From positions 1 through 59,155 of the forward strand of contig JABDGY010000004.1 in NCBI GenBank assembly GCA_013285805.1: a DNA stretch of 59,155 nt, written 5' to 3'. The notes beneath the pieces are model-generated. The model made no database searches, was not told the DNA's origin, and was given only the letters and a program-made list of their open reading frames with translations. The DNA comes from Bacteroidota bacterium. GTDB taxonomy: Bacteria > Bacteroidota > Bacteroidia > JABEUT01. Positions 23,551-46,868 of this stretch are shown piece after piece (position 1 is the stretch's first letter; each line of letters starts with the position of its first letter). Both the position numbers and the translations under genes were made by a program.

Positions 23551-23615
23551 GGGGGTGTTGAAAACTATATCACATTTATGTTTATTAGTAGTAAACATTG
23601 TGTTTATATTTGCAG
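23551..23615 (+). promoter_or_regulatory. Conserved 65-bp promoter-like motif, copy 1 (upstream of protease-capsid block)
   Basis: The sequence is gggggtgttgaaaactatatcacatttatgtttattagtagtaaacattgtgtttatatttgcag. It matches copy 2 (39599..39663) at 57/65 positions without gaps. It ends with TATATTTG (23605-23612), which fits the Bacteroidetes -7 consensus TAnnTTTG. A TTTA -33-like element lies 20 nt upstream of that box. Confidence 0.6.
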
Positions 23616-23623
23616 AAACAAAT

Positions 23624-23705
23624 AGTATTAAGTACAGGGTATTAAGAATTAAGATAAAAACAACAATTCCCGCTACTTAATACTCACTACTTAATACTTG
23701 ATACT
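23624..23705. repeat. Word-hairpin in the 5' leader of the protease gene (AGTATTAAG family)
   Basis: The left arm is agtattaagtacagggtattaagaattaagat. The right arm is ctacttaatactcactacttaatacttgatact, an imperfect reverse complement. The right arm ends at the ATG of 23706. Confidence 0.6.
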
Positions 23706-24770
23706 ATGACTGCAATACCATTCAAACATTACCCGCTCGACGCTCCCGATGAGCAGTGGGATGCCAATGCCGAAGTGGCAAAGGCCAGTACCGACGATCT
23801 GCGCATTATGTGCACCTGGGACGACCCGACCAAGCCTGAACAGAAGAACAGTTACAAGCTGCCGCACCACAAAGCCGACACCTACCACACCAACCTGAAA
23901 GGTGTTATGGCGGCAGGCAATGCTATTATGGGTGCAAGGGGTGGGGTGGAGATACCTAAATACGACCTGGATGCAGTAAAGGCGCACCTACAAAAACATT
24001 ACCACGAATTTGGCCGAACGGCCCCATGGGAAAGCAAAGCGGAATGGCGGTGGTACCAAACTAAGAACACAGGCGGCAAACTGAAGGATGTTGATACTAC
24101 CGGACGTACTGTATGCGGTTACTTTGCCTCATTCAATACTAAGGACAGCGATGGAGATATGTTTGCGCCCGGCTGCTTTGCCAAAAGTATTGCCGAAAAT
24201 AAAGACCGCATTATGCACCTGTTGCAGCACAATACATTGCAACCTATTGGCAGGCCAACGGTACTGAAAGAAGATGCACAGGGATTATATTTTGAAACTC
24301 CCATAGCCAACACCCAACTGGGCGATGATGTGCTGCAACTTTACCGCGATGGTGTGTACAAAGAACACTCCGTAGGTTTTGAAATGATCAATAGTCATCC
24401 TGAGCCTGCCAGCCCCGAATCCTCGGCGGTCGAAGCCTATGTGAATGTGATTAAAGAAGCTAAGCTATGGGAAGGCTCGACGGTAACATGGGGAGCGAAT
24501 AGCAATACACCCTTTATTGGTGTAAAGACGCGAGGCATCGCGTCTCAACAAACAGCGGCAAATATCCTGGATGAGGCCCTGGAGCGCAGTACACTTATTT
24601 ATAAGCAACTGCACCGCGGCAATTTACATGATGATACTTATACACTTCTCGAAATAGAACTTAAGCAACTGCAGGCGCTTCTGGCAGCAAGGCCGTGCGA
24701 TAACACCTTGCCCGCAACTGATGATGCCGGCTTGTCGGTGCTTAGGTCAATTAATAATTTATTCAAATAA
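23706..24770 (+). CDS. HK97-family prohead (capsid maturation) protease with N- and C-terminal extensions
   Basis: The core reads GYFASFNTKDSDGDMFAPGCFAKSI..RIMHLLQHN..PIG..GLYFE..LGDDVLQLYRDGVYKEHSVGF, which matches the S78 prohead protease pattern. It lies immediately upstream of the major capsid gene. Confidence 0.85.
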   Translation: MTAIPFKHYPLDAPDEQWDANAEVAKASTDDLRIMCTWDDPTKPEQKNSYKLPHHKADTYHTNLKGVMAAGNAIMGARGGVEIPKYDLDAVKAHLQKHYHEFGRTAPWESKAEWRWYQTKNTGGKLKDVDTTGRTVCGYFASFNTKDSDGDMFAPGCFAKSIAENKDRIMHLLQHNTLQPIGRPTVLKEDAQGLYFETPIANTQLGDDVLQLYRDGVYKEHSVGFEMINSHPEPASPESSAVEAYVNVIKEAKLWEGSTVTWGANSNTPFIGVKTRGIASQQTAANILDEALERSTLIYKQLHRGNLHDDTYTLLEIELKQLQALLAARPCDNTLPATDDAGLSVLRSINNLFK

Positions 24771-24776
24771 TAGTCG

Positions 24777-24850
24777 AAAGTTCATAAAGTTATAAAGTTC
24801 ATAAAGTAAAACGGACTTTATAAACTTTACAAACTTTCAGACTTTAAAAA
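24777..24850. repeat. Word-hairpin between protease and capsid genes (AAGTTCATAAAGT family)
   Basis: The sequence aaagttcataaagttataaagttcataaagt / aaaacgg / actttataaactttacaaactttcagactt has both arms built of tandem ~10-nt words. Confidence 0.7.
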
Positions 24851-24860
24851 CTAAAGAAAC

Positions 24861-26087
24861 ATGGAAAACAAACAGGTGGATGCTATCGTAAAAGAAATAA
24901 GCGATAACATAAACACCATAAAAACAAAGGGCGAAGCGCAAGATGCGCAACTGAAAGCCCTCGACGCCAAAATAGCGGCCAACCAATGGCAGCTGGGCGA
25001 CAAATATGAAGCTCTGCGTAAGGACTTCGACCAGATGACAGCCATGCTGAAAAAAGGCAGGCTGTTTGGTACAGCCGACCGTGGCATGACCGTAAAGGAT
25101 ATGCTGATAGCGCAAAGAGAAGGGCTGGCAAGCCTTAAAAACAAAGCCGGTATACCGGTGAGCCTCTCGCTGAAAGCCTACCAGCTATTTACCAAATCGG
25201 CAGGTAATATAACAGAAGGTGGCAACTTATTAGGCACCGACCCTATTCCGCCTACAAGGCTGGCAGGCATTTATGCTGACCCCTTAAGGCCTGTGCACCT
25301 GCGCCAGTTTATGAACAGCACCGCTACCGACAGTAACCAGATTCTGTTTAACAAGCTTACCGGTGAAAACGATGGCAGCAGCACAACGGCTGAAGGAACC
25401 AGTGCTACACAAAGCGATTTTACCATTACCGCCGAAGAAGTAATTGTGCGCAAGCTCAATACCTACCTCACCATTTCAAAAGAAATGATGGAAGATGCCG
25501 ATTTTGTAGACAACTACATTAATACGCACGTGGCAGGCAGGTTGCTTATGCAGGAGGATACACAAATACTGAACGGTAACAACACCGCGCCAAACCTGCA
25601 GGGTATTAACCCCATTGCGGCAGCGTATCTTAATCCGGTTATACCCGGAGCCTCATCGAGCAGTATAAACTACTACGATGTGTTGCACCAGGCAGTAACA
25701 CAGGCACGTGTGTCTTACTACCAGCCCAATTACATAATTATTAACCCGAACGATTACAACGCGTTGGTGTTAAGTCGCGACAGCTACGGACGTTACCAGT
25801 TCCCGCAAATGATTAGCGGAGCACCGGGTACATTCTTCATCAATGGCGCGCAGGTAATTTCAAACACCACCCAGGCACAGGGCTACTTTACCGTAGGCGA
25901 TTTCCAACTGGGCGCAACCCTTGCGTATCGCGACGAAATTAACGTTACCTTCAGTAACCAGCACGTAGACAACTTTGTGAAAGGTTTCATTACCGTGCTT
26001 GTTGAAGAGCGTATAGCGAATGTTGTATACAGGCCCAATGCATTTGTATATGGCAACTTTGCACAAGCAGAAGCGAGCGGTTCATAG
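24861..26087 (+). CDS. HK97-fold major capsid protein with an N-terminal coiled-coil (delta/scaffold-like) region
   Basis: An N-terminal coiled coil of ~100 aa is followed by a typical Phage_capsid pattern (FTITAEEVIVRKLNTYLTISKEMMEDADFVDNYINTHVAGRLLMQEDTQILNG..APNLQGI..). It sits downstream of the prohead protease. Confidence 0.9.
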   Translation: MENKQVDAIVKEISDNINTIKTKGEAQDAQLKALDAKIAANQWQLGDKYEALRKDFDQMTAMLKKGRLFGTADRGMTVKDMLIAQREGLASLKNKAGIPVSLSLKAYQLFTKSAGNITEGGNLLGTDPIPPTRLAGIYADPLRPVHLRQFMNSTATDSNQILFNKLTGENDGSSTTAEGTSATQSDFTITAEEVIVRKLNTYLTISKEMMEDADFVDNYINTHVAGRLLMQEDTQILNGNNTAPNLQGINPIAAAYLNPVIPGASSSSINYYDVLHQAVTQARVSYYQPNYIIINPNDYNALVLSRDSYGRYQFPQMISGAPGTFFINGAQVISNTTQAQGYFTVGDFQLGATLAYRDEINVTFSNQHVDNFVKGFITVLVEERIANVVYRPNAFVYGNFAQAEASGS

Positions 26088-26093
26088 AACCGC

Positions 26094-26187
26094 AATTAAA
26101 AATTAAAGATTAAAAATGAAAGGTTTACGTTGTTTATAAAAATGGGGTTCTTGAATCTTTAATCCGTAATTTGTAATCTTTAATTAG
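26094..26187. repeat. Word-hairpin downstream of the capsid gene (ATTAAAGATTAAAAAT family)
   Basis: The left arm is aattaaaaattaaagattaaaaatg. The right arm, atctttaatccgtaatttgtaatctttaatt, is its imperfect reverse complement. Confidence 0.65.
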
Positions 26188-26313: not shown

Positions 26314-26736
26314 ATGCGCACATATAGAATAATAATACTCTTAATCTTAATAGGGTTTGTTCATAGTGGCTTTTCACAAACTGATATTCAGAAGGACACT
26401 TTAATAGAGTTGTTTACCTATAAGGGAATACCCTTGCAGAACTTTTACGGTAAAAAGGTAAAGGAGTTTATTGCAGAAGTAAAAAAAGGAAAAGATTCTA
26501 TTTCAAAATCTATAGGTTGGTATGAACCGCGTGGAAATATTATCGGGCTCAGGATTATAATAAGCGATTCGACCAGTTCATTAATGATTTATTTTAAAGA
26601 TACATTTATGTACAGGGTTCCGAAAGATATGCCCGCCTGCGATGATAAAAAAGTGGGCAATGCTGTGATAAGCAGGTTTGCCGTACGCTATAGAAAAGGA
26701 TATGTGATTGACGTCGCTCCTAAAAGCGCATGGTGA
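26314..26736 (+). CDS. Small secreted protein, unknown family (paralogue A)
   Basis: It has a signal peptide (IILLILIGFVHSGFSQ). It shares the motif FTY(K/H)G(I/V)PLQ(N/Q)FYGK with 26834..27274. Confidence 0.6.
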   Translation: MRTYRIIILLILIGFVHSGFSQTDIQKDTLIELFTYKGIPLQNFYGKKVKEFIAEVKKGKDSISKSIGWYEPRGNIIGLRIIISDSTSSLMIYFKDTFMYRVPKDMPACDDKKVGNAVISRFAVRYRKGYVIDVAPKSAW

Positions 26737-26740
26737 AACC

Positions 26741-26833: not shown

Positions 26834-27274
26834 ATGCCAAAGTTTAGGTATTTCTTATTGTGTACTCTTTTATTAATAAACTTGCATTCCCTGGCACAGA
26901 ATACTATTGTTTCAAGTCAAGGTGAGTTGGAGCATACAAGTGATACATTCACTTATCATGGAGTGCCGCTTCAGCAATTTTATGGAAAAACAACTGGAGA
27001 GATTATTAATGCGCTAAAGAATAATGCGAAGATTGTTGATTGTGATAGGATGCTTGTTGAATGGACTGATTCAGTTTGTGGTATACGTGTCAATTTTAAG
27101 GGTAATAGTAGTTGGGATGATTTGAATATTTACTTTAAAAACAGTTTTCAATACAATTACCTGAAGGGCACCTCTGTTTGCGGTAACAGTGACGTACTTA
27201 GTGCCATTATAAAGTGCTTTAGGGTAGTAGGTCATGATTACTGCTATTGGCGGATTGCCCCTAAAAACGAATGA
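26834..27274 (+). CDS. Small secreted protein, unknown family (paralogue B)
   Basis: It has a signal peptide (LLCTLLLINLHSLAQ). It is colinear with 26314..26736 (DTFTYHGVPLQQFYGKTTGEIINALKNN; ..IYFKNSFQY..). Confidence 0.6.
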   Translation: MPKFRYFLLCTLLLINLHSLAQNTIVSSQGELEHTSDTFTYHGVPLQQFYGKTTGEIINALKNNAKIVDCDRMLVEWTDSVCGIRVNFKGNSSWDDLNIYFKNSFQYNYLKGTSVCGNSDVLSAIIKCFRVVGHDYCYWRIAPKNE

Positions 27275-27568: not shown

Positions 27569-28975
27569 ATGAAACTCTCAATACTGATTTGCAGCGTGCA
27601 AAAGCGGCTGCATAAGTTTGCTCAATTAGCTGAGCATTTAGAAAAACAGGCCCAGAACAAGCCCGTTGAAATATTGTGGCTAGGCGATAACAAAAGCATG
27701 ACGGTAGGCGAGAAGCGGAACAAATTGCTGAGCCTGGCTAAAGGCCAATACGTCTGTTTTGTTGACGATGACGATTGGGTTGCAGATGACTATATTGATG
27801 AACTGCTGAAAGGAACAGAATCGGGCGCAGATGTAATTTGTTTTAATGCACTGTACCGCAACCTTGCAACATGCGAGGAGCAACCCGTCAGCTTTGATAT
27901 GGGCAACCTGAATGTGAATGAAAAGCTTACATTAAGCATATGCATTGATACTCCTTTATTTAATGGAGCATCCATTCAGGCATGCATTTTTAATGCTCGT
28001 TGTTTCCCTGTAAATGGTAAAATGAAACTGGTAATAGATACAGCAATTCACATTTCAAGCATCGTCGCCGATAGTGCCGCTATTATTAGTGGAGATACAC
28101 TTATATGGAATTTCGATAGTTTGTCGGACTTAAAGAACGTTGGATGCGTTAGTATGAAAGGTACTGTTGATTCATTACATGCCCCAGACAGTGTGTTTGT
28201 TACCTTACTGGCTACGCCAATTGCAGGAGACTCCATTCCATCAAATAACAATATTACATATTGGGTTAAACCGTTCCCCAATAATTGTGTAGGACTCCCA
28301 TTCGATCCGAATGAAAAAAGCGTATATCCTGCAGGAGATATTTCCTCGACACAGAAACTAACATATACAATCCACTTCCAGAATACTGGTACTGCTGCAG
28401 CACGCGATGTGGCAGTAATTGATTCATTAAGCCCGTACTTAGACCCCACTACGTTAGATGTAATATCAAGTAGCAGCCCTGTTTCTGTGGCAATGTCATC
28501 CGGGAATGTTGTTCAGTTTACATTCAGTAATATAAACCTCCCCGATACAGCGGCAAGTAAAACTGCCAGCGTTGGGGTAGTTGAATATACGATTATACCA
28601 AAAACAAGTGTTGTGGTCGGAGACATAATAAAGAATAAGGCTGGAATTTATTTCGATTCGAACCCTGAAATTGTGACAAATACAACGATGAATAAAATTA
28701 GTAGTGCAGTGGCAGGGCTTCAGGAGATTCAAAAGCCGATGAATATAGCCTGTTTCCCCAATCCGTTTACAACAGTAACAACAATAGTGTTTAATACAAA
28801 TGGCAAGCATTACCTTGAACTTACTGATTTAGCAGGCCGCACCATACGTAGTATACAATGCAGAGGTAATCAATATGAACTAAGCCGTGAGGGCCTTGCT
28901 TCTGGTGTATATTTTATAAAAGCCTATGATGAAGGGCAGAAGTATATGGCTGTGAGTAAGTTAGTTGTGGAGTAG
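27569..28975 (+). CDS. Chimeric ORF: truncated GT2-type glycosyltransferase N-terminus fused to a secreted repeat domain with a T9SS type A CTD
   Basis: Residues 1-~95 look like a cytoplasmic family-2 glycosyltransferase (MKLSILICSV..; VCFVDDDDWVADDYI) with no signal peptide. The remainder is a cell-surface conserved-repeat domain (KLTYTIHFQNTGTAAARDVAVIDSL..LD.TTL) plus a CTD (CFPNPFTTVTTIVF..ASGVYFIKAYD..). Confidence 0.7.
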   Translation: MKLSILICSVQKRLHKFAQLAEHLEKQAQNKPVEILWLGDNKSMTVGEKRNKLLSLAKGQYVCFVDDDDWVADDYIDELLKGTESGADVICFNALYRNLATCEEQPVSFDMGNLNVNEKLTLSICIDTPLFNGASIQACIFNARCFPVNGKMKLVIDTAIHISSIVADSAAIISGDTLIWNFDSLSDLKNVGCVSMKGTVDSLHAPDSVFVTLLATPIAGDSIPSNNNITYWVKPFPNNCVGLPFDPNEKSVYPAGDISSTQKLTYTIHFQNTGTAAARDVAVIDSLSPYLDPTTLDVISSSSPVSVAMSSGNVVQFTFSNINLPDTAASKTASVGVVEYTIIPKTSVVVGDIIKNKAGIYFDSNPEIVTNTTMNKISSAVAGLQEIQKPMNIACFPNPFTTVTTIVFNTNGKHYLELTDLAGRTIRSIQCRGNQYELSREGLASGVYFIKAYDEGQKYMAVSKLVVE

Positions 28976-29027: not shown

Positions 29028-31031
29028 ATGCACTGCATTAGAGAGTTAAAAGCCTATCAAGTTTGTAAAGTTCATAAAGTTGTATTGGTCTGCTTTATAA
29101 CTTTTTGCTTTATAACCTTTCCGCTTATTGCCCAGCACCATAAAATAGATTCGCTGATGGCATTGGTGAAAAGCGATAAGGACGATACGGATAAAGTAAA
29201 CCACCTCAACGGCCTCAGCTCTTTATATAAAACATTGGGTAACCTTGATACATCAATGTATTATGTTACCAATGGCATGAAGCTTTCAAAGCAATTGAAT
29301 TTTACCCGTGGTATTGCCAAATGCTATAATATAATGGGTAACGTATATGTAGACAGGGGCGATTATCCTAATGCACTCGACAATTATTTTAAGGCTAAAA
29401 AAGTAAATGAAGATGCCGGCAATAGATCAGAGGTGGCAAAAAACCTCAGCAATATCGGCTCGGCATACAAAGGCATGGGCGATTATAAAAAGGCGCTCGA
29501 CTACGATTTCCAGGCATTGAAAATATACGAAGATATTGGAAGCGATTGGGGCATTGCCAATACCAGTGGTAATATTGGTAATATATACGACAATGAGGGT
29601 ATTTACAAAGATGCCCTGGACTATGATATGAAATCGCTGGTAATGTTCGAAAAGATAGGAGATAAAACAAGCATAGCCAGGAACACGGGCAACATAGGTA
29701 ATGTGTACGATGATTTGGGAAAATATGATGAAGCCCTTGAATATGATTTTAAATCGCTTGAAATGTATAAGGCATTAAACGATGAGCATGGAATAGCGCT
29801 AAACATTGGTAACATTGGTAATGTTTATTCTAAAACAGGGAAATACGCTGAAGCCGAAAAGTATCTTACAAGGGCAATTGCGCTTTGCGACAGCATACAT
29901 TTTTTAAGCACAGGGAAAGAATATAACCTTAGTCTTAGCAAATTATATGTGAAAACGGGGCAATGGCAAAAGGCATACAATACATATATTGTTTATACAA
30001 CTGAAAAAGATAGCCTGGTAAACCTGGAAAAAAGTAAGCAACTTGGCCGTGTTGAGGCTAAGGCCGATTATGACAAACAACTGGCGCTTCAACAGGCCGA
30101 CGATGAAAAGAAAATTGAACTGGCTAATGCAAATGCCAAGCGCGAGAAGATATTGATTGCATTTGTGGCGGCAATTGCGCTGGCTGTAACCATTATTGCG
30201 CTGATCATTTCAAGGGCTTTACAGGTAACACGCAGGCAGAAAACAACTATAGAAATAAAAAGTAAAGAGATAAACGACAGTATTGCATACGCAAAACGAT
30301 TGCAGGATGCTATTTTGCCGCCAGTGGGCCTTATTGAAAAACACCTTTCGGAATCATTTGTGTTGTACAAGCCAAAAGATATAGTGGCCGGCGATTTTTA
30401 CTGGCTGGAAAGAGTGGGCGATAAGATACTTATTGCGGCCGCCGATTGTACCGGACATGGTGTACCCGGTGCATTGGTTAGCGTGGTTTGCTCAAATGTA
30501 TTAAACAGGGCGGTGAATGAATTTCATTTAACCGAGCCTGGGAAAATATTAGATAAAGCAAGGGAGTTATTGCTGGATACTTTTTCCCAAAGGGATACAT
30601 TCGGGGAAAAAAGCGCAGGCGATATAATGGATGGTATGGACATATCTCTCGTCGCTATTAGCCTTCAGCCATTAACTGTTAGTTGGAGCGGGGCATATAA
30701 CCCATTGTGGTATATACAAGCCGGAGAAATGAAAGAGATTACGGCTGATAAACAACCGGTAGGTAAATATGAGGCAAGCAGGCCATTTACTACAACTACT
30801 CTTAATTTAAATAAGGGCGATATATTGTACCTGTTTACCGACGGCTATGCCGACCAGTTTGGCGGCCCGAAGGGAAAGAAATTTAAGTATAAGCAGTTCC
30901 AGGAAAAGCTATTGGCCATTAGCCAAAAACCATTAGCTGAACAAGCAAGGTTACTGAACGAAACATTTGAAAACTGGAAAGGAAAAAATGAGCAGACAGA
31001 TGATGTTTGTATAATAGGAGTGAGGGTGTAA
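29028..31031 (+). CDS. TPR sensor - transmembrane - PP2C/SpoIIE-family protein phosphatase
   Basis: It has the same architecture as 11042..13228. The phosphatase domain is about 70% identical by eye (DIVAGDFYW, ADCTGHGVPGALVSVVCSN, DGMDISLVAIS, LFTDGYADQFGGPKGKKFKYKQ, DDVCIIGVRV). Confidence 0.85.
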   Translation: MHCIRELKAYQVCKVHKVVLVCFITFCFITFPLIAQHHKIDSLMALVKSDKDDTDKVNHLNGLSSLYKTLGNLDTSMYYVTNGMKLSKQLNFTRGIAKCYNIMGNVYVDRGDYPNALDNYFKAKKVNEDAGNRSEVAKNLSNIGSAYKGMGDYKKALDYDFQALKIYEDIGSDWGIANTSGNIGNIYDNEGIYKDALDYDMKSLVMFEKIGDKTSIARNTGNIGNVYDDLGKYDEALEYDFKSLEMYKALNDEHGIALNIGNIGNVYSKTGKYAEAEKYLTRAIALCDSIHFLSTGKEYNLSLSKLYVKTGQWQKAYNTYIVYTTEKDSLVNLEKSKQLGRVEAKADYDKQLALQQADDEKKIELANANAKREKILIAFVAAIALAVTIIALIISRALQVTRRQKTTIEIKSKEINDSIAYAKRLQDAILPPVGLIEKHLSESFVLYKPKDIVAGDFYWLERVGDKILIAAADCTGHGVPGALVSVVCSNVLNRAVNEFHLTEPGKILDKARELLLDTFSQRDTFGEKSAGDIMDGMDISLVAISLQPLTVSWSGAYNPLWYIQAGEMKEITADKQPVGKYEASRPFTTTTLNLNKGDILYLFTDGYADQFGGPKGKKFKYKQFQEKLLAISQKPLAEQARLLNETFENWKGKNEQTDDVCIIGVRV

Positions 31032-39506: not shown

Positions 39507-39598
39507 CGAGGATTAATCTCCGCTTACAAAGTATTTCGTAATCCTGCCAATTGCCCGCCGCTCTTACTTCTTACATATTACTTTTTACTTCATAGGGA

Positions 39599-39663
39599 GG
39601 GGGTGTTGAAAACTATATCACTATTTTGTTTAATAATATTAAACAATGTGTTTATATTTGCAT
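39599..39663 (+). promoter_or_regulatory. Conserved 65-bp promoter-like motif, copy 2 (upstream of connector-to-chaperone block)
   Basis: The sequence is gggggtgttgaaaactatatcactattttgtttaataatattaaacaatgtgtttatatttgcat. It is 57/65 identical to copy 1 with no gaps. The TATATTTG -7 box lies at 39653-39660. Confidence 0.6.
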
Positions 39664-39670: not shown

Positions 39671-39760
39671 AATTTGATAATTCGGCCATTTGGTTATTTG
39701 ATGATGAAAGCAGTATAATCTGACAATTATCAAATTACCAAATCATCAAATTACCAAATT
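39671..39760. repeat. Word-hairpin in the 5' leader of the connector gene (ATTTGATAAT family)
   Basis: The left arm is aatttgataattcggccatttggttatttgatgatg. The right arm is aattatcaaattaccaaatcatcaaattaccaaatt. About 27 of 36 positions are complementary. Confidence 0.65.
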
Positions 39761-40485: not shown

Positions 40486-40824
40486 ATGATTGGTTCAATG
40501 CGATATAAACTAAATATAGAACAACTCTCCACCACACCCGATGGCGCCGGAGGTACATCCGCAACCTGGAGCACGCTTAAAACAATGTTTGCCTTTGTCG
40601 AGGTAAACACCTCCGGCCGCCTTTTTATACAGGGCCAGGAATATGTGGGAACATATTATACAATTAACTGCAGGTATAACTCTTTCAAGTATACAGCACC
40701 AATTGAGAACTATCGTTTGGTTGTTGACCCCGACGGAGTGAACCGCAGCTTGAAAATATTAACTATAAATAATCCCGACCTGCTGAAAGTGTATTTAACT
40801 ATAACAGCAATTGATAACGGGTAA
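40486..40824 (+). CDS. Phage head-closure / head-tail joining protein
   Basis: It is 112 aa and reads ..PDGAGGTSATWSTLKTMFAFVEV.SGRLF..GQE....Y.I..RY... Both the position and the pattern fit the SPP1 gp16/HK97 head-tail joining family. Confidence 0.7.
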   Translation: MIGSMRYKLNIEQLSTTPDGAGGTSATWSTLKTMFAFVEVNTSGRLFIQGQEYVGTYYTINCRYNSFKYTAPIENYRLVVDPDGVNRSLKILTINNPDLLKVYLTITAIDNG

Positions 40825-40826: not shown

Positions 40827-40857
40827 TTAATTAAGAATTAAAAATTAAAGATTAAAA
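40827..40857. repeat. Single word arm (ATTAAAGATTAAAAAT family)
   Basis: The sequence is ttaattaagaattaaaaattaaagattaaaa. It fills the whole 33-nt spacer between two phage genes. Confidence 0.5.
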
Positions 40858-41280
40858 ATGTTTTCATTGAAGATAGAAGGAGTGGATGATTTGTTGAATA
40901 AGTATCAACAGGCAACAGATGCATTAGCAGAGCAAGTAAAGGTGGCTGTGGCAGAAACAGCAGAGACTATAGCCGATAATGCAAGGCAAAATTGTAGGGG
41001 AAAACTTAAAGATTCTATTGCAGTAAATATAGCTGATGACAGGATGAGTGCAGTAATAAGCGCAGACCACCCGGATGCAGCCTTTATAGAATACGGTGTT
41101 AGAATTCCTGAAATACATACGAAAGATGCAAAGACATTACACTGGAAAGAAGATGGCAAGGATGTCTTTGCGAAATCGGCAAAAGGACATGAAATGGCCC
41201 CACGGCCCTTTATGAATCCTGCATTTGAAGAAAATGCACAAAAATTACTAGATACCTTAAGCGATATTACAGGACAATGA
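40858..41280 (+). CDS. HK97 gp10-like tail/neck component
   Basis: It is 140 aa, with GKLKDSI.., AAFIEYGV.. and APRPFMNPAFEEN as in HK97-gp10_like proteins. Confidence 0.7.
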   Translation: MFSLKIEGVDDLLNKYQQATDALAEQVKVAVAETAETIADNARQNCRGKLKDSIAVNIADDRMSAVISADHPDAAFIEYGVRIPEIHTKDAKTLHWKEDGKDVFAKSAKGHEMAPRPFMNPAFEENAQKLLDTLSDITGQ

Positions 41281-41723
41281 AAGACTCAAGCAAAATAATA
41301 CGTACTGCATACTATAACGCATTGAATAATGTGGTGCAGTTTAACTCAGCCGGTGTGCCGCTATACGATTCGGTGCCATCGAACGCAGCATACCCTTACA
41401 TATATGTGTCAGATTACACTGCAGTTGAAGAAACTACAAAAGACTTCTTCGGGCAGAATGTAACTATAACGCTGGTTGTCGCCATGAAGTACCCGGCCAA
41501 CTATGGCGGGCAGAATGATATTGATGGCATTGTAAGCCAGGTAACAGGTATTGTACGTGGCACCATAACCACATCGCAACCACTTTCATTCACGCCCGAT
41601 TTTCAAAACATAATAACACAGGTTGACCAATCGAACTACTTTAAACAGGAAGTGGCCGATGGCATTGTATATTACAGAACAATAAAATTCAGGCACCGCA
41701 TTACACAAATAACGAATGGATAA
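41277..41723 (+). CDS. Tail terminator/completion-like protein (DUF3168-like)
   Basis: It overlaps the upstream stop by 4 nt. The pattern ..VPLYDSVPSNAAYPYIYVSDYT.. resembles the vYd.vP....PYv motif of DUF3168. It lies immediately before the tube gene. Confidence 0.6.
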   Translation: MKDSSKIIRTAYYNALNNVVQFNSAGVPLYDSVPSNAAYPYIYVSDYTAVEETTKDFFGQNVTITLVVAMKYPANYGGQNDIDGIVSQVTGIVRGTITTSQPLSFTPDFQNIITQVDQSNYFKQEVADGIVYYRTIKFRHRITQITNG

Positions 41724-41757
41724 CTTTCAACTTTATAAACTTTACAAACTTTAAACT
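41722..41757. repeat. Single word arm (ACTTTATAAACTT family)
   Basis: The sequence is aactttcaactttataaactttacaaactttaaact. It lies in the spacer between two tail genes. Confidence 0.5.
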
Positions 41758-41765: not shown

Positions 41766-42191
41766 ATGGGAAAAATTAATGGAACTAACCTGCTTGTATA
41801 TGTAAATACCGGCAGCGGAGGAATTGAACCCTGCAGCTATTCGCAGGATTGCAAACTTAGCATTGACATGGGCACAGCTAATGCCACCACCAAAGACAGC
41901 GGAGGCTGGGATGAAATTATTGCCACCAATGGCAAATGGACAATGGATACTAGCGGCCTGGTTGATTTCCACCCTAGTGGAGCACATAATGTAGCTGATT
42001 TGTTTACGTCCATGACAGCCAAAAGCACAGTGAATGTATATTTTCAGCTAAGTGACCCTGTAACGGGCGATAAAGGCTGGACAGGCACCGCATATATTAC
42101 CAAGCTGGAACAAGATGCCAAAGACAAAGATGTGGTAAGCTATTCGGTGACTTTTGAAGGCACAGGCGCGCTTACTATGGCAACATCATAA
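41766..42191 (+). CDS. Major tail (tube) protein, TP901-1/RcGTA g9-like
   Basis: It is 141 aa and reads GTNLLVYVN..; ..ATTKDSGGWDEIIATNGKWTMDTSGLVDF..; ..YSVTFEGTGAL. Size, position and pattern fit the TP901-1-type major tail family. Confidence 0.75.
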   Translation: MGKINGTNLLVYVNTGSGGIEPCSYSQDCKLSIDMGTANATTKDSGGWDEIIATNGKWTMDTSGLVDFHPSGAHNVADLFTSMTAKSTVNVYFQLSDPVTGDKGWTGTAYITKLEQDAKDKDVVSYSVTFEGTGALTMATS

Positions 42192-42208: not shown

Positions 42209-42598
42209 ATGGTTTTTGTAACAATAGGTGGCAAACAACGCCCGTTTAAGTTTGGCTTCAATGCCATAGATATTTTTTGCCGTGAGCATAATATAGGTAT
42301 AAGCGAGTTTGGCGAGCGCTTTGCTAAAATAGGTAAAGGAAATGCCACCATAGGCGAACTGCGCGATATAATATTCGCCGGCCTGGCCGGAGGTGCCCTG
42401 ACAAGCGGAGAACAAATTGACTTTACTTCTTTCCATGTAGGTGATTGGATGGATGAACTTCCACAAGGCGAATTGGCCAAAATGATGGAAGCGATTACCC
42501 AGTCTGTTAATGTACCGGGTAAAAAAAAATTACCGCAGGCAACCCCGGCCAAAGTGGCGGGGACGAAGAAAGAGAAGGTAGTAGGGAAGAGGCCCTGA
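42209..42598 (+). CDS. Tail assembly chaperone (G-like, zero-frame product)
   Basis: It lies directly after the tube gene. The pattern VTIGGKQRPFKFGFNAIDIF..IGELRDIIFAGLAGG resembles the GTA/phage TAC (g10-like) family. A slippery A9 run lies near the 3' end. Confidence 0.7.
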   Translation: MVFVTIGGKQRPFKFGFNAIDIFCREHNIGISEFGERFAKIGKGNATIGELRDIIFAGLAGGALTSGEQIDFTSFHVGDWMDELPQGELAKMMEAITQSVNVPGKKKLPQATPAKVAGTKKEKVVGKRP

Positions 42599-42915
42599 CC
42601 TGGAGCGAACTGCTCATTCATAGCTCACGCGCGGGTGTATCGTATTCCGATTTCTGGAAAATGGCACCCTGCGAGTGGGCTTTTTATATGGAAGGCTACC
42701 GGCAGCGTGAAGAGGAGGCATGGCTGCGCACCAGAACCATATATACATTAATGTACAATATAAATGTCGACAAGCACCACCAGATGTCGCCGGCTGAACT
42801 TATGCCATTACCTTGTGATGAGAGGAATGAAAAGCACAGGGAAGCCGGGAAAGCAAAATATCTGACTGATGAAGAGAGGGAGAAAATCATTGCGTTGTAC
42901 AAAGCCAGGTGCTAA
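42209..42915 (+). CDS. Predicted -1 frameshift fusion chaperone (GT-like product)
   Basis: A slip at 42523-42529 joins about 107 aa of the G-like ORF to 129 aa of the -1 frame (..ITAGNPGQSGGDEEREG..SYSDFWKMAPCEWAFYMEGY..). The FW..tP.E motif resembles phage TAC_6/RcGTA g10.1-type proteins. The annotated ORF 42661..42915 is the distal part of this frame. Confidence 0.6.
42523..42529 (+). promoter_or_regulatory. A AAA AAA slippery heptamer for programmed -1 ribosomal frameshifting
   Basis: The zero frame reads GGU AAA AAA AAA UUA (A-run 42521-42529). The -1 frame has its last stop at 42520-42522 and is then open from 42523 through to 42915. Confidence 0.65.
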
Positions 42916-42993: not shown

Positions 42994-44376
42994 ATGAAGT
43001 CCCTGGCCGGAAAAATATGTTTAGTAGTATTCATTCTGAGTAACTCTGTTTGTTTTTCGCAACAAGGTAAATCTAAGGTGTCTGCTACGGGAATGCATGA
43101 TACAACTGGCTCCAAATGGAAATACGAAGAAAAGGAAGATAAGATGTCGCCTGAGAAAAAGTATTTTGCTGAAGTGTTATCAGATGACAGTATTGATGGC
43201 GGCATTCTTTCTGAAAAATACCAGCATGTAACATTATGCATAAGGAATGAGGAGGGCAAGTCGGAAGTGATGCTATATACCGATAATATACTGTTTGATT
43301 GTGATGCTGAGAAGGGAACGACCTACAGAATGCGTTTCGACAATGAGGAACCATCGCAATATCTTTTCACTCCGGCCACTGAAGGGCAATTAAATGCAGC
43401 ATTCATAAACCCAGCATCTGAGGTAATTGAAAAAATCAAGCACGCTGAGAAGCTGGTGGTCGAAGTAAGTTTTCTTTTGAAAGGTACCTATCAGCTTACT
43501 TTCGATGTGCATGGCCTTGTCTGGAACCATGCCGATAAATCGGCAGAGAATTCAAATGATTTGAAGGTAACCGACGCGATGAAGCACTGGCAGTATTTCG
43601 ATACTACTGATGCAATGACTTCAGAAAAGCAATATGATGTGCTTGTTTATTCTAAGGCCCCTATGGAGTATAAGCCTGCATATAATACAGAAGCATATGC
43701 TTCTTTTTTTCTTTATTATAATGGTAGTGAAAATTACTTTTCTGTTAGATTAGATAAAGGCGCTTTTAATACCAAAGATGATAGTTGCCGTGTGCGGTTT
43801 GATAATAACAAGCCTGCATATTATAAGGTATATTTTCGCGGCTCGGAATACTACTATATCATGGGGTTTTATAAGAAAGATACTTTAATAAGCTTGTTGA
43901 AGAAGGCAAAGAAAATGTTAATTGAAGTGGATATTGATAAGGTTGGGAAGCGCTTGCTTGAGTTTGATGTTGAAGGCCTGAAATGGAATCATAAAAATAT
44001 AAACACAGGCAAGACATTTTCAGGTAGTGCTCCGGTGAAGAAACCCACAAATAATCAAACACCTTTTTATGTTCATAATTCTACTGCAAACCCACCAGAT
44101 TCTTCGTCGGCTTCCGGTAATGATTTTAAAGTATTGAGTACTGATGAAGAAGTAGATATTAATGACGACAACGTTACCCTTGTTTGTAAATGCAGGAATA
44201 CCGGTAAGGGCGAGAAGAGCGTTAAAATTAAAGGTTATTTCATGGATGATACCGGTAAAGTACTTTCAATAAAGGAAGTGTCGGTGGAATGTACCGGGAA
44301 TATGAGCCTTACTACCAGGTTAACGGCCTCAGGCATAGCGAGAAGTTATAAAAAATTCAAGATTGAAATTGAATAA
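42994..44376 (+). CDS. Secreted protein with an internally duplicated domain, inserted between the chaperone and tape-measure genes
   Basis: It has a signal peptide (ICLVVFILSNSVCFSQQ). Two homologous modules end in ..KLVVEVSFLLKGTYQLTFDVHGLVWNH and ..KMLIEVDIDKVGKRLLEFDVEGLKWNH. It has its own TAATATTG promoter-like box upstream. I found no phage structural motif. Confidence 0.65.
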   Translation: MKSLAGKICLVVFILSNSVCFSQQGKSKVSATGMHDTTGSKWKYEEKEDKMSPEKKYFAEVLSDDSIDGGILSEKYQHVTLCIRNEEGKSEVMLYTDNILFDCDAEKGTTYRMRFDNEEPSQYLFTPATEGQLNAAFINPASEVIEKIKHAEKLVVEVSFLLKGTYQLTFDVHGLVWNHADKSAENSNDLKVTDAMKHWQYFDTTDAMTSEKQYDVLVYSKAPMEYKPAYNTEAYASFFLYYNGSENYFSVRLDKGAFNTKDDSCRVRFDNNKPAYYKVYFRGSEYYYIMGFYKKDTLISLLKKAKKMLIEVDIDKVGKRLLEFDVEGLKWNHKNINTGKTFSGSAPVKKPTNNQTPFYVHNSTANPPDSSSASGNDFKVLSTDEEVDINDDNVTLVCKCRNTGKGEKSVKIKGYFMDDTGKVLSIKEVSVECTGNMSLTTRLTASGIARSYKKFKIEIE

Positions 44377-44438: not shown

Positions 44439-44500
44439 GGGGTTGTTAATAAAATAGTAAACATAAAATATATTATAGTAAATATAAAGTATATATTTGC
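44439..44500 (+). promoter_or_regulatory. Weak third copy of the promoter-like motif (upstream of tape-measure block)
   Basis: The sequence is ggggttgttaataaaatagtaaacataaaatatattatagtaaatataaagtatatatttgc. It has the same 62-nt end-to-end spacing from GGGG.TGTT to TATATTTGC as copies 1 and 2. Only about 38/62 positions are identical, in AT-rich sequence. Confidence 0.35.
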
Positions 44501-44522
44501 TTTAATTAAATAACACCACTCT

Positions 44523-45311
44523 ATGACTGACGTTTCCGCACTAAGTGTAAGTATTGAGGTAGACATGTCTGCCTTTATGGAGGCTATGGAAGAAGTTACT
44601 GCTATGCTTATAGCTACAGCAGAAATGTTCGACGAAGTAGCCCGGGATATTTCAAAGGCATTATCGGGTATAAGCGAATCGGGAGGCGAAACCCAGAGCA
44701 CCTTGGAAAAAATTATAAAATTTATTATTGAGGCTGTAGATATATTTAAAACGCTGAAAGAAATAATAAATGGCGTTATAGATGTTTTTAAATTTCTGGG
44801 CCTGGCAGAAGAAGACGCTACGGCAACCACTATTCTTGCTTCATTCCTGGAATTTATGGGTGTGGCTGCAGAATTGGCTACTCCCATTGGCTGGGTAATG
44901 CTGGGGCTAACTTCCATAGCATTGGCCTATTTAGCCTTGCATGATTCAGGAGGGAAGGCGAATGAGGCATTAAGCGATACAAATGATAATGTTAAAGTTA
45001 CCGGCGACAGCATAGAAAATGCTACAGGGAAAGTAATTGAATTTAATAACGCTTTAAACGATACTAACAATATACAATTATCTGCTAAAGAGCCCCCGCC
45101 CGGGGCTGCAATTCATGCAAAGGTTAATGATAATAACGTACCTGTTGATAATGGTACAATTTATTTTAATCAGCAACAGGGCATTATTAATCAAGGTAGC
45201 CAACCCGGCTTAACACAGGGTAGCAGCCTTAGTTCAGGCAGCAATACAAATCCGGATTCATCGGAATCGGATAAACCCATGCAGAATATTGCTGAAAAGT
45301 TTAATGGGTAG
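44523..45311 (+). CDS. Short tape-measure-like protein
   Basis: It occupies the tape-measure position. The N-terminal half is A/E/I/L/M-rich and helical. A hydrophobic segment follows (ATPIGWVMLGLTSIALAYLAL), then an N/Q/S/G/P low-complexity tail. It is only 262 aa. Confidence 0.5.
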   Translation: MTDVSALSVSIEVDMSAFMEAMEEVTAMLIATAEMFDEVARDISKALSGISESGGETQSTLEKIIKFIIEAVDIFKTLKEIINGVIDVFKFLGLAEEDATATTILASFLEFMGVAAELATPIGWVMLGLTSIALAYLALHDSGGKANEALSDTNDNVKVTGDSIENATGKVIEFNNALNDTNNIQLSAKEPPPGAAIHAKVNDNNVPVDNGTIYFNQQQGIINQGSQPGLTQGSSLSSGSNTNPDSSESDKPMQNIAEKFNG

Positions 45312-45368
45312 CCTATATGGATTTTGATAAATTTGCAACCTTATCGGTGATTTTAACCCCAAGTAAGT

Positions 45369-46049
45369 ATGTTGAATAAACTAAGATTAAGAATAGCATT
45401 TGAGCGCTTGAAGGCCCGTTTAGGTCGGCTACCAAATAACCTTAATGGAGAGCAGTTAATGGCTTTTGTATTTTCGAAGGAGGGCAGCTTAATAGAACCT
45501 TGGCAATTTAAGGAGGAACTTTCGCAGTTACTGAAGTTATATGAAGGGAAGAAATTTAAAACCGTACTGGAAATAGGCACTGCAAATGGAGGTATGTTGT
45601 TTCTTCATGCAAGGCTTGCAGCTGATGATGCTTTAATTATGAGCATTGATTTGCCTGGTGGGAAATTTGGTGGAGGATACCCGGAATGGAAGGTGCCGGT
45701 ATATAAAAAGTTTATAAGGCCAGGACAAAGAATAGAGCTTTTAAGGGCAAATTCGCATGAAGAGTCAACTGTAAATAAAGTGAAGGAGATTCTAAAGGGA
45801 AAGAAATTAGATTATTTATTTATTGACGGAGATCATACGTATGAAGGGGTTAAAAAGGATTTTCAAATGTATAGCGAGTTAGTTGGGAGTGGAGGAATGA
45901 TAGTTTTCCATGATATTGCTCCTCATCCTAAGTCTTCGTGTGTAGTAGACCAATTCTGGAATGAAGTGAAACAAAATTTTACCTTTAAAGAGTTTATAAA
46001 ACAGCCAATTGAAAATAAATTTGGAATAGGCGTTTTATTTAAGCAATAG
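45369..46049 (+). CDS. Class I SAM-dependent methyltransferase (Methyltransf_24/CmcI-like)
   Basis: It carries SAM-binding motif I (VLEIGTANGGMLFL), a post-I acidic residue (IMSIDL) and ..DYLFIDGDHTYEGVKKDFQMY..GGMIVFHDI. Confidence 0.7.
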   Translation: MLNKLRLRIAFERLKARLGRLPNNLNGEQLMAFVFSKEGSLIEPWQFKEELSQLLKLYEGKKFKTVLEIGTANGGMLFLHARLAADDALIMSIDLPGGKFGGGYPEWKVPVYKKFIRPGQRIELLRANSHEESTVNKVKEILKGKKLDYLFIDGDHTYEGVKKDFQMYSELVGSGGMIVFHDIAPHPKSSCVVDQFWNEVKQNFTFKEFIKQPIENKFGIGVLFKQ

Positions 46050-46141
46050 GATAATACGAAACCACAATACAGGTAAATACCTGGCACAGATAAAATAGTT
46101 TTAACATAAATGCCCTAATGGGCATTTAATACCACTTTAAT

Positions 46142-46396
46142 ATGATGAATACCGAACATATTCAGCATGAGGACCCTCGTGTAATATTCCTTATGCTTAT
46201 TACGCTTTTATGCGGCTCGGCCGGAAGGATGCTGGGCGATTTAAAACCACTAATAGATGGCATAGTGCTATTGGGCACTGCCAAAACTGCCTTTCATTAT
46301 ACTATGGAAGTAACACAATGGCTTTGCTATGTTACCTCGTTTATAGTGGGGCTAATAACGATTTATAAATTTTTTAACAGAAAAAATGGACATTAA
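46142..46396 (+). CDS. Holin-like small membrane protein
   Basis: It is 84 aa with 2-3 hydrophobic helices and a basic C-terminus (FFNRKNGH). It overlaps the start of the lysin gene by 11 nt. Confidence 0.5.
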   Translation: MMNTEHIQHEDPRVIFLMLITLLCGSAGRMLGDLKPLIDGIVLLGTAKTAFHYTMEVTQWLCYVTSFIVGLITIYKFFNRKNGH

Positions 46397-46868
46397 TAAA
46401 GCATTTACTATCCTCCTTGGTTTTGAAGGAGGAATATCAAATAACCCCAATGACAAAGGAGGGTTGACAAAGTATGGAATCAGCAAGGCTTCTTACCCTG
46501 ATGTGGATATAGCCAACCTGACAGAAGAAAAGGCAAAAGACATATATACAACTGATTATTGGGAAGCAGCAGGCTGCGATCTTGTGAAAGATGAGCTCCG
46601 GTATGCTTTGTTTGATACTGCTGTAAACATGGGGGTAAAAGAAGCCATTAAATTGCTTCAGCAGGCTTGCGGGGCAGCAATAGATGGTGCATTAGGTGCA
46701 GAAACCCTCGGTAAAAGCAATACTATAACTATTGCTGACTACCTGCTATGCAGGCTTTTACGGTATAACGCAATAATGGATGCGAATACATCGCAAATTG
46801 TCTTTCGCAAAGGATGGACAAGCAGGGTTGCAGCCATATATAATATGCAGAAGCAAGGTCAGGTATAA
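46386..46868 (+). CDS. GH108-family lysozyme with a peptidoglycan-binding domain (endolysin-like)
   Basis: The N-terminus FTILLGFEGGISNNPNDKGGLTKYGIS has the catalytic EGG..D.GG.T.yGI signature of GH108. The C-terminal part reads LFDTAVNMGVKEAIKLLQQACGAAIDGALGAETL (PG_binding_3-like). Confidence 0.85.
   Translation: MDINKAFTILLGFEGGISNNPNDKGGLTKYGISKASYPDVDIANLTEEKAKDIYTTDYWEAAGCDLVKDELRYALFDTAVNMGVKEAIKLLQQACGAAIDGALGAETLGKSNTITIADYLLCRLLRYNAIMDANTSQIVFRKGWTSRVAAIYNMQKQGQV

Follow-up and report, generated by a model that had tools for sequence, protein, structure and literature searches.

Dispersed HK97-type head, tail and lysis genes behind a common promoter motif in a Bacteroidota genome: a possible gene-transfer-agent-like system

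Phage-derived genes in the window

The stretch of DNA analysed here, called the window, is 59,155 nucleotides long. Genes were called by Pfam and PHROGs profile searches, and all phage-derived genes and motif copies described below lie on the forward strand; loci of relatives are given as L numbers. The first phage-derived block consisted of an intact prohead serine protease of the S78 family (354 aa, 23706–24770; PF04586 Peptidase_S78, E 1.5e-22) and an intact HK97-fold major capsid protein (408 aa, 24861–26087; PF05065 Phage_capsid, E 2.8e-35), as the original prediction had stated. The N-terminus of the capsid protein is a delta-like region, and the protein matched HK97 gp5 structures at ~1e-37. 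The protease shared 81–88% identity with relatives and 58–60% with contiguous phage relatives, whose capsid protein was ~49% identical to that of the window.

Downstream of the capsid gene, host-type genes occupied both strands, and the connector gene started only after ~13.5–13.7 kb. This interval had been described as ~13.5 kb of cellular genes, but it also included the remnant of a phage-type family-2 glycosyltransferase (GT2; 27569–27907). The remnant comprised the first ~100–113 aa and continued in frame into a DUF7619/T9SS protein, of which the C-terminal 356 aa were present, giving a chimeric ORF at 27569–28975. Its identity was 65% with the phage L005 GT2 and 80% with that of L004, where intact GT2 and DUF7619/T9SS genes stand side by side. 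The GT2 was also intact in L100 and L101, and in the phage relatives its gene comes after the capsid gene.

The second block began with a gp6-like head-tail connector (39784–40392; PF05135 Phage_connect_1, E 6.5e-15), followed by a head completion (head closure) protein (40486–40824; PF05521 Phage_HCP, E 1.6e-10), an HK97 gp10-like tail component (40858–41280; PF04883 HK97-gp10_like, E 1e-6), a tail terminator (41277–41723; PHROG 176, E 1.8e-10, with a weak Pfam Tail_completion_gp17 match) and a tail tube protein (41766–42191; PF06199 Phage_tail_2, E 1.5e-14). The profile searches thus supported each of the five genes predicted here, the terminator mainly through its PHROG match. Compared with L018, the connector was 90% identical (dN/dS 0.04), the head completion protein 82%, the gp10-like protein 54% and the tube protein 72%, a value that the tube protein also reached with phage L007. 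Two tail assembly chaperones were encoded next, G (42209–42598) and G-T (42209–42915); G gave a weak Phage_TAC_11 match and a PHROG tail protein match at 1.4e-5. The predicted slip site was found as a run of nine A at 42521–42529, with the −1 (T) frame open at 42523–42915, and the A9/A10 run was kept in relative L018 and in phage relatives L005 and L007. The G-T chaperone is predicted to be made through a −1 frameshift at this site.

An inserted gene (42994–44376) encoded a secreted protein whose signal peptide and two ~150-aa internal repeats were visible in the translation. Its sole family match was PHROG 1848, which has no assigned function, and L085 carried a homologue in the opposite orientation. 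The gene does not encode a tape measure and was missing from the phage relatives.

The third block opened with a truncated tape measure (44523–45311), which had weak PHROG tape-measure matches. Its N-terminal ~135 aa were homologous to a full tape measure, with 41% identity to residues 2–128 of a 518-aa protein of L085, the C-terminus of which matched the tape measure of phage L005. The conserved C-terminal half (~270 aa) was absent from the window's version. The short tape-measure-like protein of the original prediction is therefore a true tape-measure homologue, but it retains merely this N-terminal part. The next gene was identified by profile search as a host-type SAM-dependent methyltransferase (Methyltransf_24; 45369–46049). 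L026 and L099 had no methyltransferase at the matching position, and the gene is probably a host-type insertion where fuller blocks carry distal tail genes. The block ended with a small holin-like membrane protein (84 aa, 46142–46396) and a GH108 endolysin (46386–46868; PF05838, E 1e-23). The hydrophobic stretches of the former, possible membrane spans, were judged by eye in the translation, without a transmembrane predictor, and the protein was weakly similar to a 77-aa ORF preceding GH108 in L026. The lysin was 49–59% identical to the block-ending lysins of L026, L050 and L099. The expected PG_binding_3 domain was not detected in the window lysin.

Terminase, portal, Mu-F, distal tail, integrase and replication genes were found in the window neither by Pfam searches of all large ORFs nor by tblastn with proteins of the phage relatives, and no tRNA was found there; these results agreed with the original prediction. 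Word-repeat families D5, D11–13, D16, D17 and D19 occurred in the spacers of both phage-derived and host genes, as had also been noted before.

A motif shared by the three blocks

Each of the three phage-gene blocks was located behind a copy of one ~65-nt promoter-like motif, confirming the earlier observation. Copy 1 (23549–23614) contained the upstream element GGGGGTGTTGAAAACT and the Bacteroidota-type −7 box TATATTTG, with TGTTTA / TAAACA-N3-TGTTTA half-sites. Its sequence was also found 5' of the protease gene in L004, L019, L039 and L101. Copy 2 (39597–39662) was 89% identical to copy 1 and was conserved upstream of the connector genes in L018, L026, L061, L085 and others. Copy 3 (~44439–44500; GGGGTTGTTAA...TAGTAAATATAAAGTATATATTTG) was divergent, with the spacing of its two landmark elements within one base of that in copy 1. 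Equivalents of copy 3 preceded the orthologous gene in L018 and L085, and it was similar to the promoter that L050 has ahead of its distal-tail/lysis block. The chance expectation in the window was 0 for each motif half.

A census of soil metagenomes indicated that 22 of ~34 genuine motif copies were directly 5' of phage-derived genes: 10 at connector-type blocks, 3 at the protease, 5 at TerS/TerL and 4 at the GTA_holin_3TM holin. The association with phage genes was strong but not exclusive: in some genomes the motif also occurred upstream of an HTH protein family, recF, gdhA and pgm. In those parts of the phage relatives that were sampled, no copy of the motif was detected.

Conservation, packaging genes and selection in relatives

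The isolated protease-capsid pair recurred amid host genes in many lineages, with capsid identities of 69–95%. In L004, L019 and L039, the pair had upstream host genes in common, and the window and L026 agreed in the host genes that flank the connector block. The absence from close relatives that the original prediction had named as counter-evidence was not observed. In contiguous phage relatives, which occurred in the same soil samples, the order was TerS-TerL-portal-MuF-protease-capsid-GT2-...-connector-...-tube-G/GT-tape measure-distal tail. The window genes followed this order, consistent with the colinearity originally proposed, and the phage arrangement is the ancestral one.

The evidence for portal, terminase and distal tail genes comes only from relatives. 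The packaging genes expected elsewhere were seen there: TerS-TerL, the portal and the 3TM holin each stood by themselves in host DNA, in most cases preceded by the same motif. TerS-TerL stood in this way in L054, and portals in L050, L052 and L053, the L053 portal block lying behind a motif copy. TerL and capsid protein records had equal longest-contig sizes three times (336171, 135911 and 102580), and a protease-capsid block and one TerL are very probably carried by a single contig of 336 kb. The MAG holding the L053 portal very probably also carries a ~89% identical capsid protein; such assignments of blocks to genomes are weak, relying in part on matching contig sizes and neighbouring accession numbers. 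Precomputed Pfam labels revealed no integrase or replication genes in the relatives' loci, where many ORFs had no Pfam match.

The phage-derived genes are under purifying selection. Overall dN/dS was 0.04–0.15 with intact ORFs in many species, at dS from 0.25 to saturation, far from the value near 1 or the disrupted frames that the original prediction had named as counter-evidence. The dN/dS was 0.04–0.06 for the capsid (0.04 at dS 0.25 for L004 vs L019), 0.07–0.12 for the protease and 0.04–0.25 for the tail genes. Between L004 and L019, the dS of neighbouring host genes (0.5–0.9 vs 0.25–0.5) was in a similar range.

A gene-transfer-agent-like reading and its alternatives

With moderate confidence, we consider the best explanation to be a vertically inherited, dispersed and co-regulated siphovirus (HK97-type) gene set that would operate like a gene transfer agent. 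The set would have been kept, split into blocks and put block by block behind one promoter/operator in a clade of uncultured soil Bacteroidia. Across the clade it comprised TerS-TerL, the portal, protease-capsid, the capsid-associated glycosyltransferase, the connector-to-tape-measure genes with the G/GT chaperones, distal tail genes, the 3TM holin and the GH108 lysin. From these gene identities, their dispersal and conservation, the selection on them, the common motif and the packaging genes of relatives, we infer that the blocks are induced together, that particles assemble, and that these package random DNA and transfer it. One regulator would bind the half-sites, which overlap a sigma-A type −7 box, and switch on all blocks together. 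The protease would mature an HK97-type prohead, TerS/TerL would load it through the portal with any available DNA, and the connector, completion, terminator and tube proteins would assemble a non-contractile tail; the holin and lysin would then free the particles. Because the gene set extends over tens to hundreds of kb and exceeds any head, such particles could not propagate their own genes. The resemblance to a gene-transfer-agent-type system lies in the fact that relatives also retain DNA-packaging genes as separate blocks. No gene transfer agent described for Bacteroidota was found.

The host-controlled particle originally proposed was thus partly supported. As far as the data reach, the relatives, dN/dS, packaging genes and motif gave none of the four refuting outcomes named for it, but the state of the tail module did not fit. 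In the window, distal tail genes were absent from the locus, and the tape measure and glycosyltransferase were both truncated; since this copy is partly eroded, its genome may make tail-less heads or heads with defective tails. Several lineages had differing, independently arisen in-frame deletions removing the head-completion to tape-measure genes, leaving connector::LamG fusions (L026, L063, L066, L094), a connector::T fusion (L073) or a connector stub (L068). The in-frame fusions were themselves kept across species (L026, L063 and L066, and L094 at ~70%). In L004 and L019, the head genes were still strongly selected after deletion of the tail module, suggesting that the conserved function may not need this tail. 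Such repeated loss with continued selection on the capsid and protease would not be expected in a classical tailed gene transfer agent. It would fit domestication for a role other than transfer, a tentative alternative with a minor share of the probability, in which related phages would be blocked or exploited or tail-less capsids would serve another cellular role. Possible modes are assembly poisoning, helper-phage tail piracy as in capsid-forming satellites, and abortive lysis. The conserved fusions, the window's want of a working tape measure or distal tail, and the related contiguous phages in the same soil samples fit this role. However, intact TerS, TerL and portal indicate DNA packaging and not mere decoys, blocks with a full tail and lysis set remain in some members (L085, L099), and the sharing of a promoter by every block favours a single, jointly assembled particle. 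The satellite hallmarks of integrase, replication genes and a compact island were also missing.

It is unlikely that the genes are the pieces of an ancient defective prophage, fragmented by genome rearrangement and slowly decaying without current function. The lineage-specific deletions and truncations, the host and secreted-protein genes inserted into the former operon and the incomplete set in the window are what such decay would leave. The low dN/dS with intact frames over this range of dS speaks against it, and the same isolated blocks were present in lineages with capsids just ~70% identical. Neutral decay would also not produce a homologous promoter ahead of each block at high identity.

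An intact inducible temperate phage with large moron insertions, or a phage-host assembly chimera, is very improbable. In its favour, the structural genes are undisrupted and follow the order of the phage relatives. Against it, terminase, portal, integrase, repressor and replication genes were all missing from the window, the head block is set apart from the tail block by 13.5 kb of host-type genes on both strands, and many species have the same split. Three independent assemblies from the same species gave identical junctions between the protease-capsid block and the flanking host DNA, and the connector block was reproduced at 99–100% in L061, so an artefact of assembly does not explain the layout.

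Phage-derived genes of the window and their truncations

The original prediction had called a protease, a capsid protein, a series running from connector to chaperone, and a lysin, and these calls were confirmed by profile searches. Pfam matches were obtained for an S78 prohead protease (23706-24770), an HK97-fold capsid protein (24861-26087; HK97 gp5 structures matched at approximately 1e-37), a gp6-like connector (39784-40392), a head completion protein (40486-40824), a gp10-like protein (40858-41280) and a tube protein (41766-42191). The tail terminator (41277-41723) was recognized by PHROG 176, tail chaperone G (42209-42598) by a weak Pfam match together with a PHROG, and the GH108 lysin (46386-46868) by a profile search. 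The 84-aa protein encoded 5' of the lysin had hydrophobic stretches and a membrane-spanning look when its translation was read by eye. A run of nine A residues was located inside the chaperone gene (42521-42529), with the -1 frame open from the run to 42915, and was also present in one related genome and two phage relatives. The phage-derived set of the window thus consisted of head, proximal tail and lysin genes only; its tape measure was truncated, and its distal tail was absent. The remaining window was Bacteroidota chromosome, encoding T9SS-sorted proteins, SprB/CHU_C, gldF/gldG-like ABC components, asparaginase, cysteine synthase and TPR-SpoIIE phosphatases. As predicted, Pfam analysis of all large ORFs found no terminase, portal, integrase or replication gene in the window, and no module for integration, replication or lysogeny control; a tRNA was likewise absent. 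The same modules were absent among the precomputed Pfam labels flanking the blocks of relatives, where many ORFs carried no Pfam label. Rfam searches of the window, and of the regions 3' of motif-like hits found in other genomes, gave no match.

The nearest complete relatives were uncultured phages, whose capsid, protease and tube proteins were approximately 49%, approximately 58-60% and up to 72% identical to those of the window. In these phages the order was contiguous: TerS, TerL, portal, Mu-F, protease, capsid, small ORF, family-2 glycosyltransferase (GT2), two ORFs, and connector through tape measure to distal tail. A BLAST search of the capsid protein against cultured phages returned only matches below 30% identity, indicating that there was no named phage relative. 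Related loci from MAGs, metagenomes and phages are designated here by L-numbers. In the window, two paralogous small ORFs (26314-26736 and 26834-27274), 31% identical to each other, separated the capsid gene from the glycosyltransferase remnant; no homologues were found in L004, L018, L019, L026, L039, L045, L047-L049, L073, L100 and L101.

The spacer between the first two blocks had been described as cellular. Most of its genes were indeed of host type, but it included a phage-derived remnant: the first approximately 100 aa of ORF 27569-28975 were 65% identical to the GT2 found 3' of the capsid gene in phage relatives, and the rest was the C-terminal part of a DUF7619/T9SS protein. In L004, a relative on a 336-kb contig, both genes were intact and adjoining, showing that a deletion in the window lineage has fused them. 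Relatives whose capsid proteins were 95% and 92% identical had an intact glycosyltransferase.

A second set of truncations affected the tail. The gene at 42994-44376 was rejected as a tape measure on the basis of its signal peptide, its internal repeats, its absence from phage relatives and its inverted orientation in L085 (a relative with a connector-type block), where the homologue (3799-4347, minus strand) had one repeat. It was identified as an inserted secreted-protein gene with two repeats of approximately 150 aa, located between the chaperone and tape-measure genes and matching PHROG 1848, a family with no annotated function. The following ORF (44523-45311) had been taken for a short tape measure; its tape-measure origin held, but it was only a remnant, matching the first approximately 130 residues of the 518-aa L085 tape measure. 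The C-terminal half of that protein and the phage L005 tape measure shared 39% identity. The full layout was found on the 11.8-kb contig L099: connector, completion, gp10, terminator, tube, chaperones and tape measure, followed by a distal tail protein of approximately 890 aa, LamG proteins, two small proteins and GH108. In the window, the whole stretch from the middle of the tape measure to a point just before the holin has disappeared, and a methyltransferase gene was gained there. With its tape measure truncated, its locus free of distal tail genes and its glycosyltransferase destroyed, the window copy may be partly defective.

Conservation, packaging genes and tail loss among relatives

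The same species was present in three independent assemblies with identical junctions. In relatives whose capsid proteins were 88-95% identical (L004, L019, L100 and L101) or 69-72% identical (L045, L047 and L048/49), each capsid gene adjoined a protease gene, and host genes occupied the side where a phage portal would be. Two host genes 5' of the protease were common to L004, L019 and L039, and the host genes flanking the L026 connector block on either side corresponded to those of the window, at only approximately 48% identity. Comparison of L004 with L019 gave a capsid dN of 0.010, dS of 0.249 and dN/dS of 0.04, and the protease dN/dS among L004, L019 and L039 was 0.07-0.12. Between the window and relatives, dS of the head and tail genes was saturated, with dN/dS of 0.04-0.25. 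The neighbouring host genes of L004 and L019 had dS values in a similar range (0.5-0.9) and dN/dS of 0.13-0.20. This pattern looks like in-place vertical inheritance under constraint. The original prediction could have failed through absence of the genes from relatives or through disrupted ORFs with dN/dS near 1. Many lineages carried the genes, their capsid proteins being 69-95% identical, and the head, connector and proximal tail genes were intact, with dN/dS of at most 0.25; decay was confined to GT2, tape measure and distal tail of the window and to the tail modules of some relatives. Two local features were also observed. In L101, whose capsid protein was 92% identical, a 72% identical protease (8967-9803) started right after the motif without the N-terminal approximately 95 residues and kept the S78 domain; in L039, one related MAG, a gene with the competence-regulator domain TfoX_N (4520-4870) lay approximately 2 kb upstream of the protease block.

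The relatives supplied TerS, TerL, portal, holin and full tail blocks, spread over several genomes, none of which was complete. A search with phage-portal profiles detected portals of 410-426 aa on long host contigs. In L050 and L053 the portal stood alone amid host genes, and the CHU_C genes of L052 surrounded an isolated TerL, a gene on the reverse strand, a small ORF and a portal. The L053 portal was preceded by a motif copy and an 85-aa HTH ORF, homologous to the TerS-like gene 5' of TerL in L062. This portal came from MAG GCA_052325425.1, and an approximately 89% identical capsid protein had an NCBI accession 1,999 away from that of the portal, from which we infer that both belong to this MAG. 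The TerL profile search yielded many terminases of approximately 400 aa from long contigs of Bacteroidia MAGs, which NCBI labels PBSX-family in this clade; three TerLs and capsid proteins reported identical longest-contig sizes (336171, 135911 and 102580). TerS-TerL and portal lay more than 10 kb from the other blocks or on other contigs. The prediction that portal and terminase genes would sit behind further motif copies was matched among relatives by the L053 portal and by five TerS or TerS-TerL loci. In L054, TerS-TerL had no other phage-derived genes beside it; an ECF sigma gene cluster lay on one side and efflux genes on the other, and the promoter-proximal motif half was present upstream. 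The L080 TerS-TerL contig and a 99-100% identical connector contig derive from one metagenome, and L080 shares the species-specific GGGTGTTG variant, which is suggestive of membership in the window's species; no full-length TerL match tying L080 to that species was found.

Loss of the tail was graded among relatives. The connector block was full or nearly full in the window, L061, L018, L085 and L099. In L026/L076, L063 (which shares its 336-kb contig with L004), L066 and L094 (approximately 70% identity), the first approximately 60 connector residues continued in frame into a LamG distal-tail protein, a fusion in which the genes between were deleted. The connector start was joined to the T part of the chaperone in L073, on a contig carrying a 92% identical capsid protein, and L068 had a connector stub beside the lysin. 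Both the L004 and L019 genomes had the LamG fusion, and the constraint on their capsid genes (dS 0.25, dN/dS 0.04) indicated that head genes stayed constrained after the tail deletion.

Promoter motif and comparison with known systems

The 66-nt sequence at 23549-23614 was repeated at 39597-39662 with 89% identity, and each motif half was found at these two window sites only, with zero occurrences expected by chance. A motif copy for every block had been noted before; three copies were present, the third of which (approximately 44439-44500) was divergent, with its leading G run and TATATTTG box spaced within one base of copy 1. The motif comprised TGTTTA / TAAACA-N3-TGTTTA half-sites, with a GGGtTGTTGAAAACT element upstream, and its end, TAnnTTTG, is the -7 box of Bacteroidota promoters. 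Scans of the blocks for sigma-70 promoters and terminators gave no information, as expected for Bacteroidota. The shared motif of approximately 65 nt ahead of the blocks is a candidate element for common, host-integrated control.

A census with a stricter pattern over soil metagenomes gave 44 loci, comprising 10 unrelated sequences and 34 with an extended consensus. Downstream of the motif lay connector-type blocks (10 loci), TerS or TerS-TerL (5), a 161-aa GTA_holin_3TM holin (4; E 1.3e-13), a 174-188-aa HTH family next to parAB (4), protease (and capsid; 3), recF (2), gdhA or pgm after repeat DNA (2) and unclassified ORFs (L060 and L070); in L059 and L097 the downstream sequence was too short to call. 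The scan of the genome collection gave 36 hits, mostly chance or unclear matches and none of them in the window's own genome, and only the two MAGs with hits at phage genes (L018/L039 and L019/L026) were counted as genuine. The motif was thus tied to phage-derived genes strongly, but not exclusively. The possibility raised earlier, of a ubiquitous element unrelated to phage genes, was not borne out: phage-derived genes followed 22 of about 34 genuine copies.

The motif was searched for in the available parts of the phage relatives as a test for an inherited late promoter and was absent; the corresponding genes there were packed without intergenic promoters. The absence of the motif suggested that the promoter copies seem to have been added after fragmentation. 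Such addition before separate blocks would be hard to explain without selection for co-expression.

The best fit to these observations is a putative phage particle system, domesticated, dispersed and co-regulated. Judged from the layout, the encoding genes would not be transferable as a unit by one particle, since the blocks span 23.3 kb with host genes between. RcGTA is described as phage-like particles unable to carry all genes for their own production, with a multi-locus 'genome' (PMC5026251); the present set would likewise exceed its putative particle and is multi-locus. It also resembles RcGTA (R. capsulatus and alphaproteobacterial relatives) in its HK97-type protease and capsid, gp6-like connector, head completion, gp10-like, terminator, tube, G/GT and tape-measure genes, arranged in equal order, in the absence of integrase and replication genes, in vertical inheritance under purifying selection, and in a holin of Pfam family GTA_holin_3TM, here found in relatives. 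Lysis genes are at separate loci in RcGTA, as they are here. Unlike RcGTA, in which TerS through tape measure form one operon of approximately 15 kb, the present terminase, portal, protease-capsid and connector-tail genes are separate, each behind a copy of one promoter. In addition, the origin is independent, the nearest relatives being Bacteroidia siphophages and the closest cultured-phage capsids being below 30% identical, a phage glycosyltransferase belongs to the set, and tail modules are often deleted.

The FpGTA of Faecalibacterium is encoded by two operons approximately 125 kb apart (PMC12946183), and split layouts therefore have precedent. Like BaGTA, VSH-1, Dd1, VTA, PBSX and FpGTA, the present system would be host-encoded and phage-derived; none of those is from Bacteroidota, and none is reported to have five or six dispersed blocks, each preceded by a repeat of one promoter cassette. 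A 2026 paper listing known GTA systems describes the non-alphaproteobacterial examples as very few. In agreement with the original prediction, the literature searched contained no description of a GTA in Bacteroidota.

A GTA-like mechanism would be the simplest account of the joint retention of protease, capsid, portal, TerS and TerL. We tentatively suggest, as a possible reading, an independently evolved Bacteroidota GTA of at least six single-promoter blocks (TerS-TerL, portal, protease-capsid, connector-tail, tape measure-lysis and holin) under one operator, with its head and packaging core selected despite tail loss. Selection on the core of tail-less lineages would then imply use for tail-less DNA-filled capsids or tails in trans. 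In the LamG-fusion genomes, either the tail genes moved elsewhere or the conserved function needs no such tail; a role other than gene transfer, such as anti-phage interference or tail piracy, is conceivable but unlikely. Slow neutral decay appeared improbable. The set does resemble cryptic or defective prophage remnants in its incompleteness, its GT2 and tape-measure truncations and its lineage-specific deletions, but it differs from them in occupying the same loci across species, in strongly constrained coding sequence and in the duplicated promoters kept. The conservation, the packaging genes of relatives, the motif census and the tail-loss patterns argue against neutral decay and equally against an intact prophage or assembly chimera, which we consider extremely improbable.

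GTAs are known from few lineages, each a separate domestication of a phage. A Bacteroidota GTA would bring them to a new phylum, one dominant in soils, oceans and guts, and would offer an unusually clear picture of domestication, with ancestral contiguous phages, an operon cut up, the same promoter at each block and graded tail loss. The regulon defined by the promoter motif would be searchable in genome sequences. Dispersed viral structural genes kept under selection are also known from the bracoviruses of parasitoid wasps, where these genes are co-expressed and the particles are unable to carry them. This likeness is an analogy only, since bracoviruses are eukaryotic, nudivirus-derived and serve another biological purpose. 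Capsid-forming phage-inducible chromosomal islands have their own HK97-type head and packaging genes and are tail-less. They are compact, mobile and self-packaging, with integrase and replication genes, whereas the genes described here lie scattered in synteny with host genes and include no mobility functions. A phage satellite (PICI or capsid-forming PICI) was rejected because there was no integrase or replication gene and the genes were scattered among host genes.

Intergenic repeats and genes beside the motif

Several spacers consisted of repeated short words (for example, 23617-23700, 26094-26118, 39672-39750, 40836-40860 and 41722-41750), including GTATTAAG, AATTAAAAATTAAAG, AACTTTC/AAACTTTAC and ATTTGATAA. 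The earlier observation that the same word families flank host and phage-derived genes was upheld; the words often seemed hairpin-forming, as judged by eye in the few spacers read. A REP-like palindromic repeat, GCCCCAAACCCCTAAAGGGGCTT, occurred in the intergenic DNA of L054 (9140-9400), L045 (approximately 2050-2200) and L052 (approximately 9820-9930), and some of its sites adjoined motif copies. L014 and L032, from MAG bin_46 (the same MAG as the L053 portal block), carried motif-like sequences at contig ends with repeat DNA alone downstream, and this repeat differed from GCCCCAAACCCCTAAAGGGGCTT.

Genuine motif copies were also located 5' of recF, and of gdhA and pgm after repeat DNA (L091/L093, L064, L089 and L098), and one copy in this set preceded a lone TerS-like gene beside mnmG. 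In many bacteria, recF, mnmG and parAB lie near the replication origin. The 174-188-aa HTH family, which had no Pfam match, was encoded directly 3' of a motif copy in L065, L074, L083 and L086; in L065 and L074, the two with downstream sequence, an MBL-fold gene and parA followed, with parB also in L065. This family may act as the motif's regulator, or it may represent a further TerS-like protein. TPR-SpoIIE (PP2C) phosphatase genes were found near phage-derived blocks in the window (11042-13228, minus strand; 29028-31031, plus strand) and in L004, L050 and L052. Motif-like hits by such genes in four Mucilaginibacter genomes (L021, L027, L031 and L043) were not counted, the family being large, with two copies in the window alone. 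The proximity of these genes to blocks and motif-like sites may be due to chance, though a regulatory link is conceivable.

Elsewhere in the window, a 1685-aa ORF (207-5264) without a Pfam match contained many internal repeats, with periods of approximately 57, 390 and 600 nt. Three neighbouring genes at 16188-19119 had very similar 5' ends and upstream sequences (window repeat families D7 and D10), which suggests tandem duplication of secreted or lipoprotein genes.
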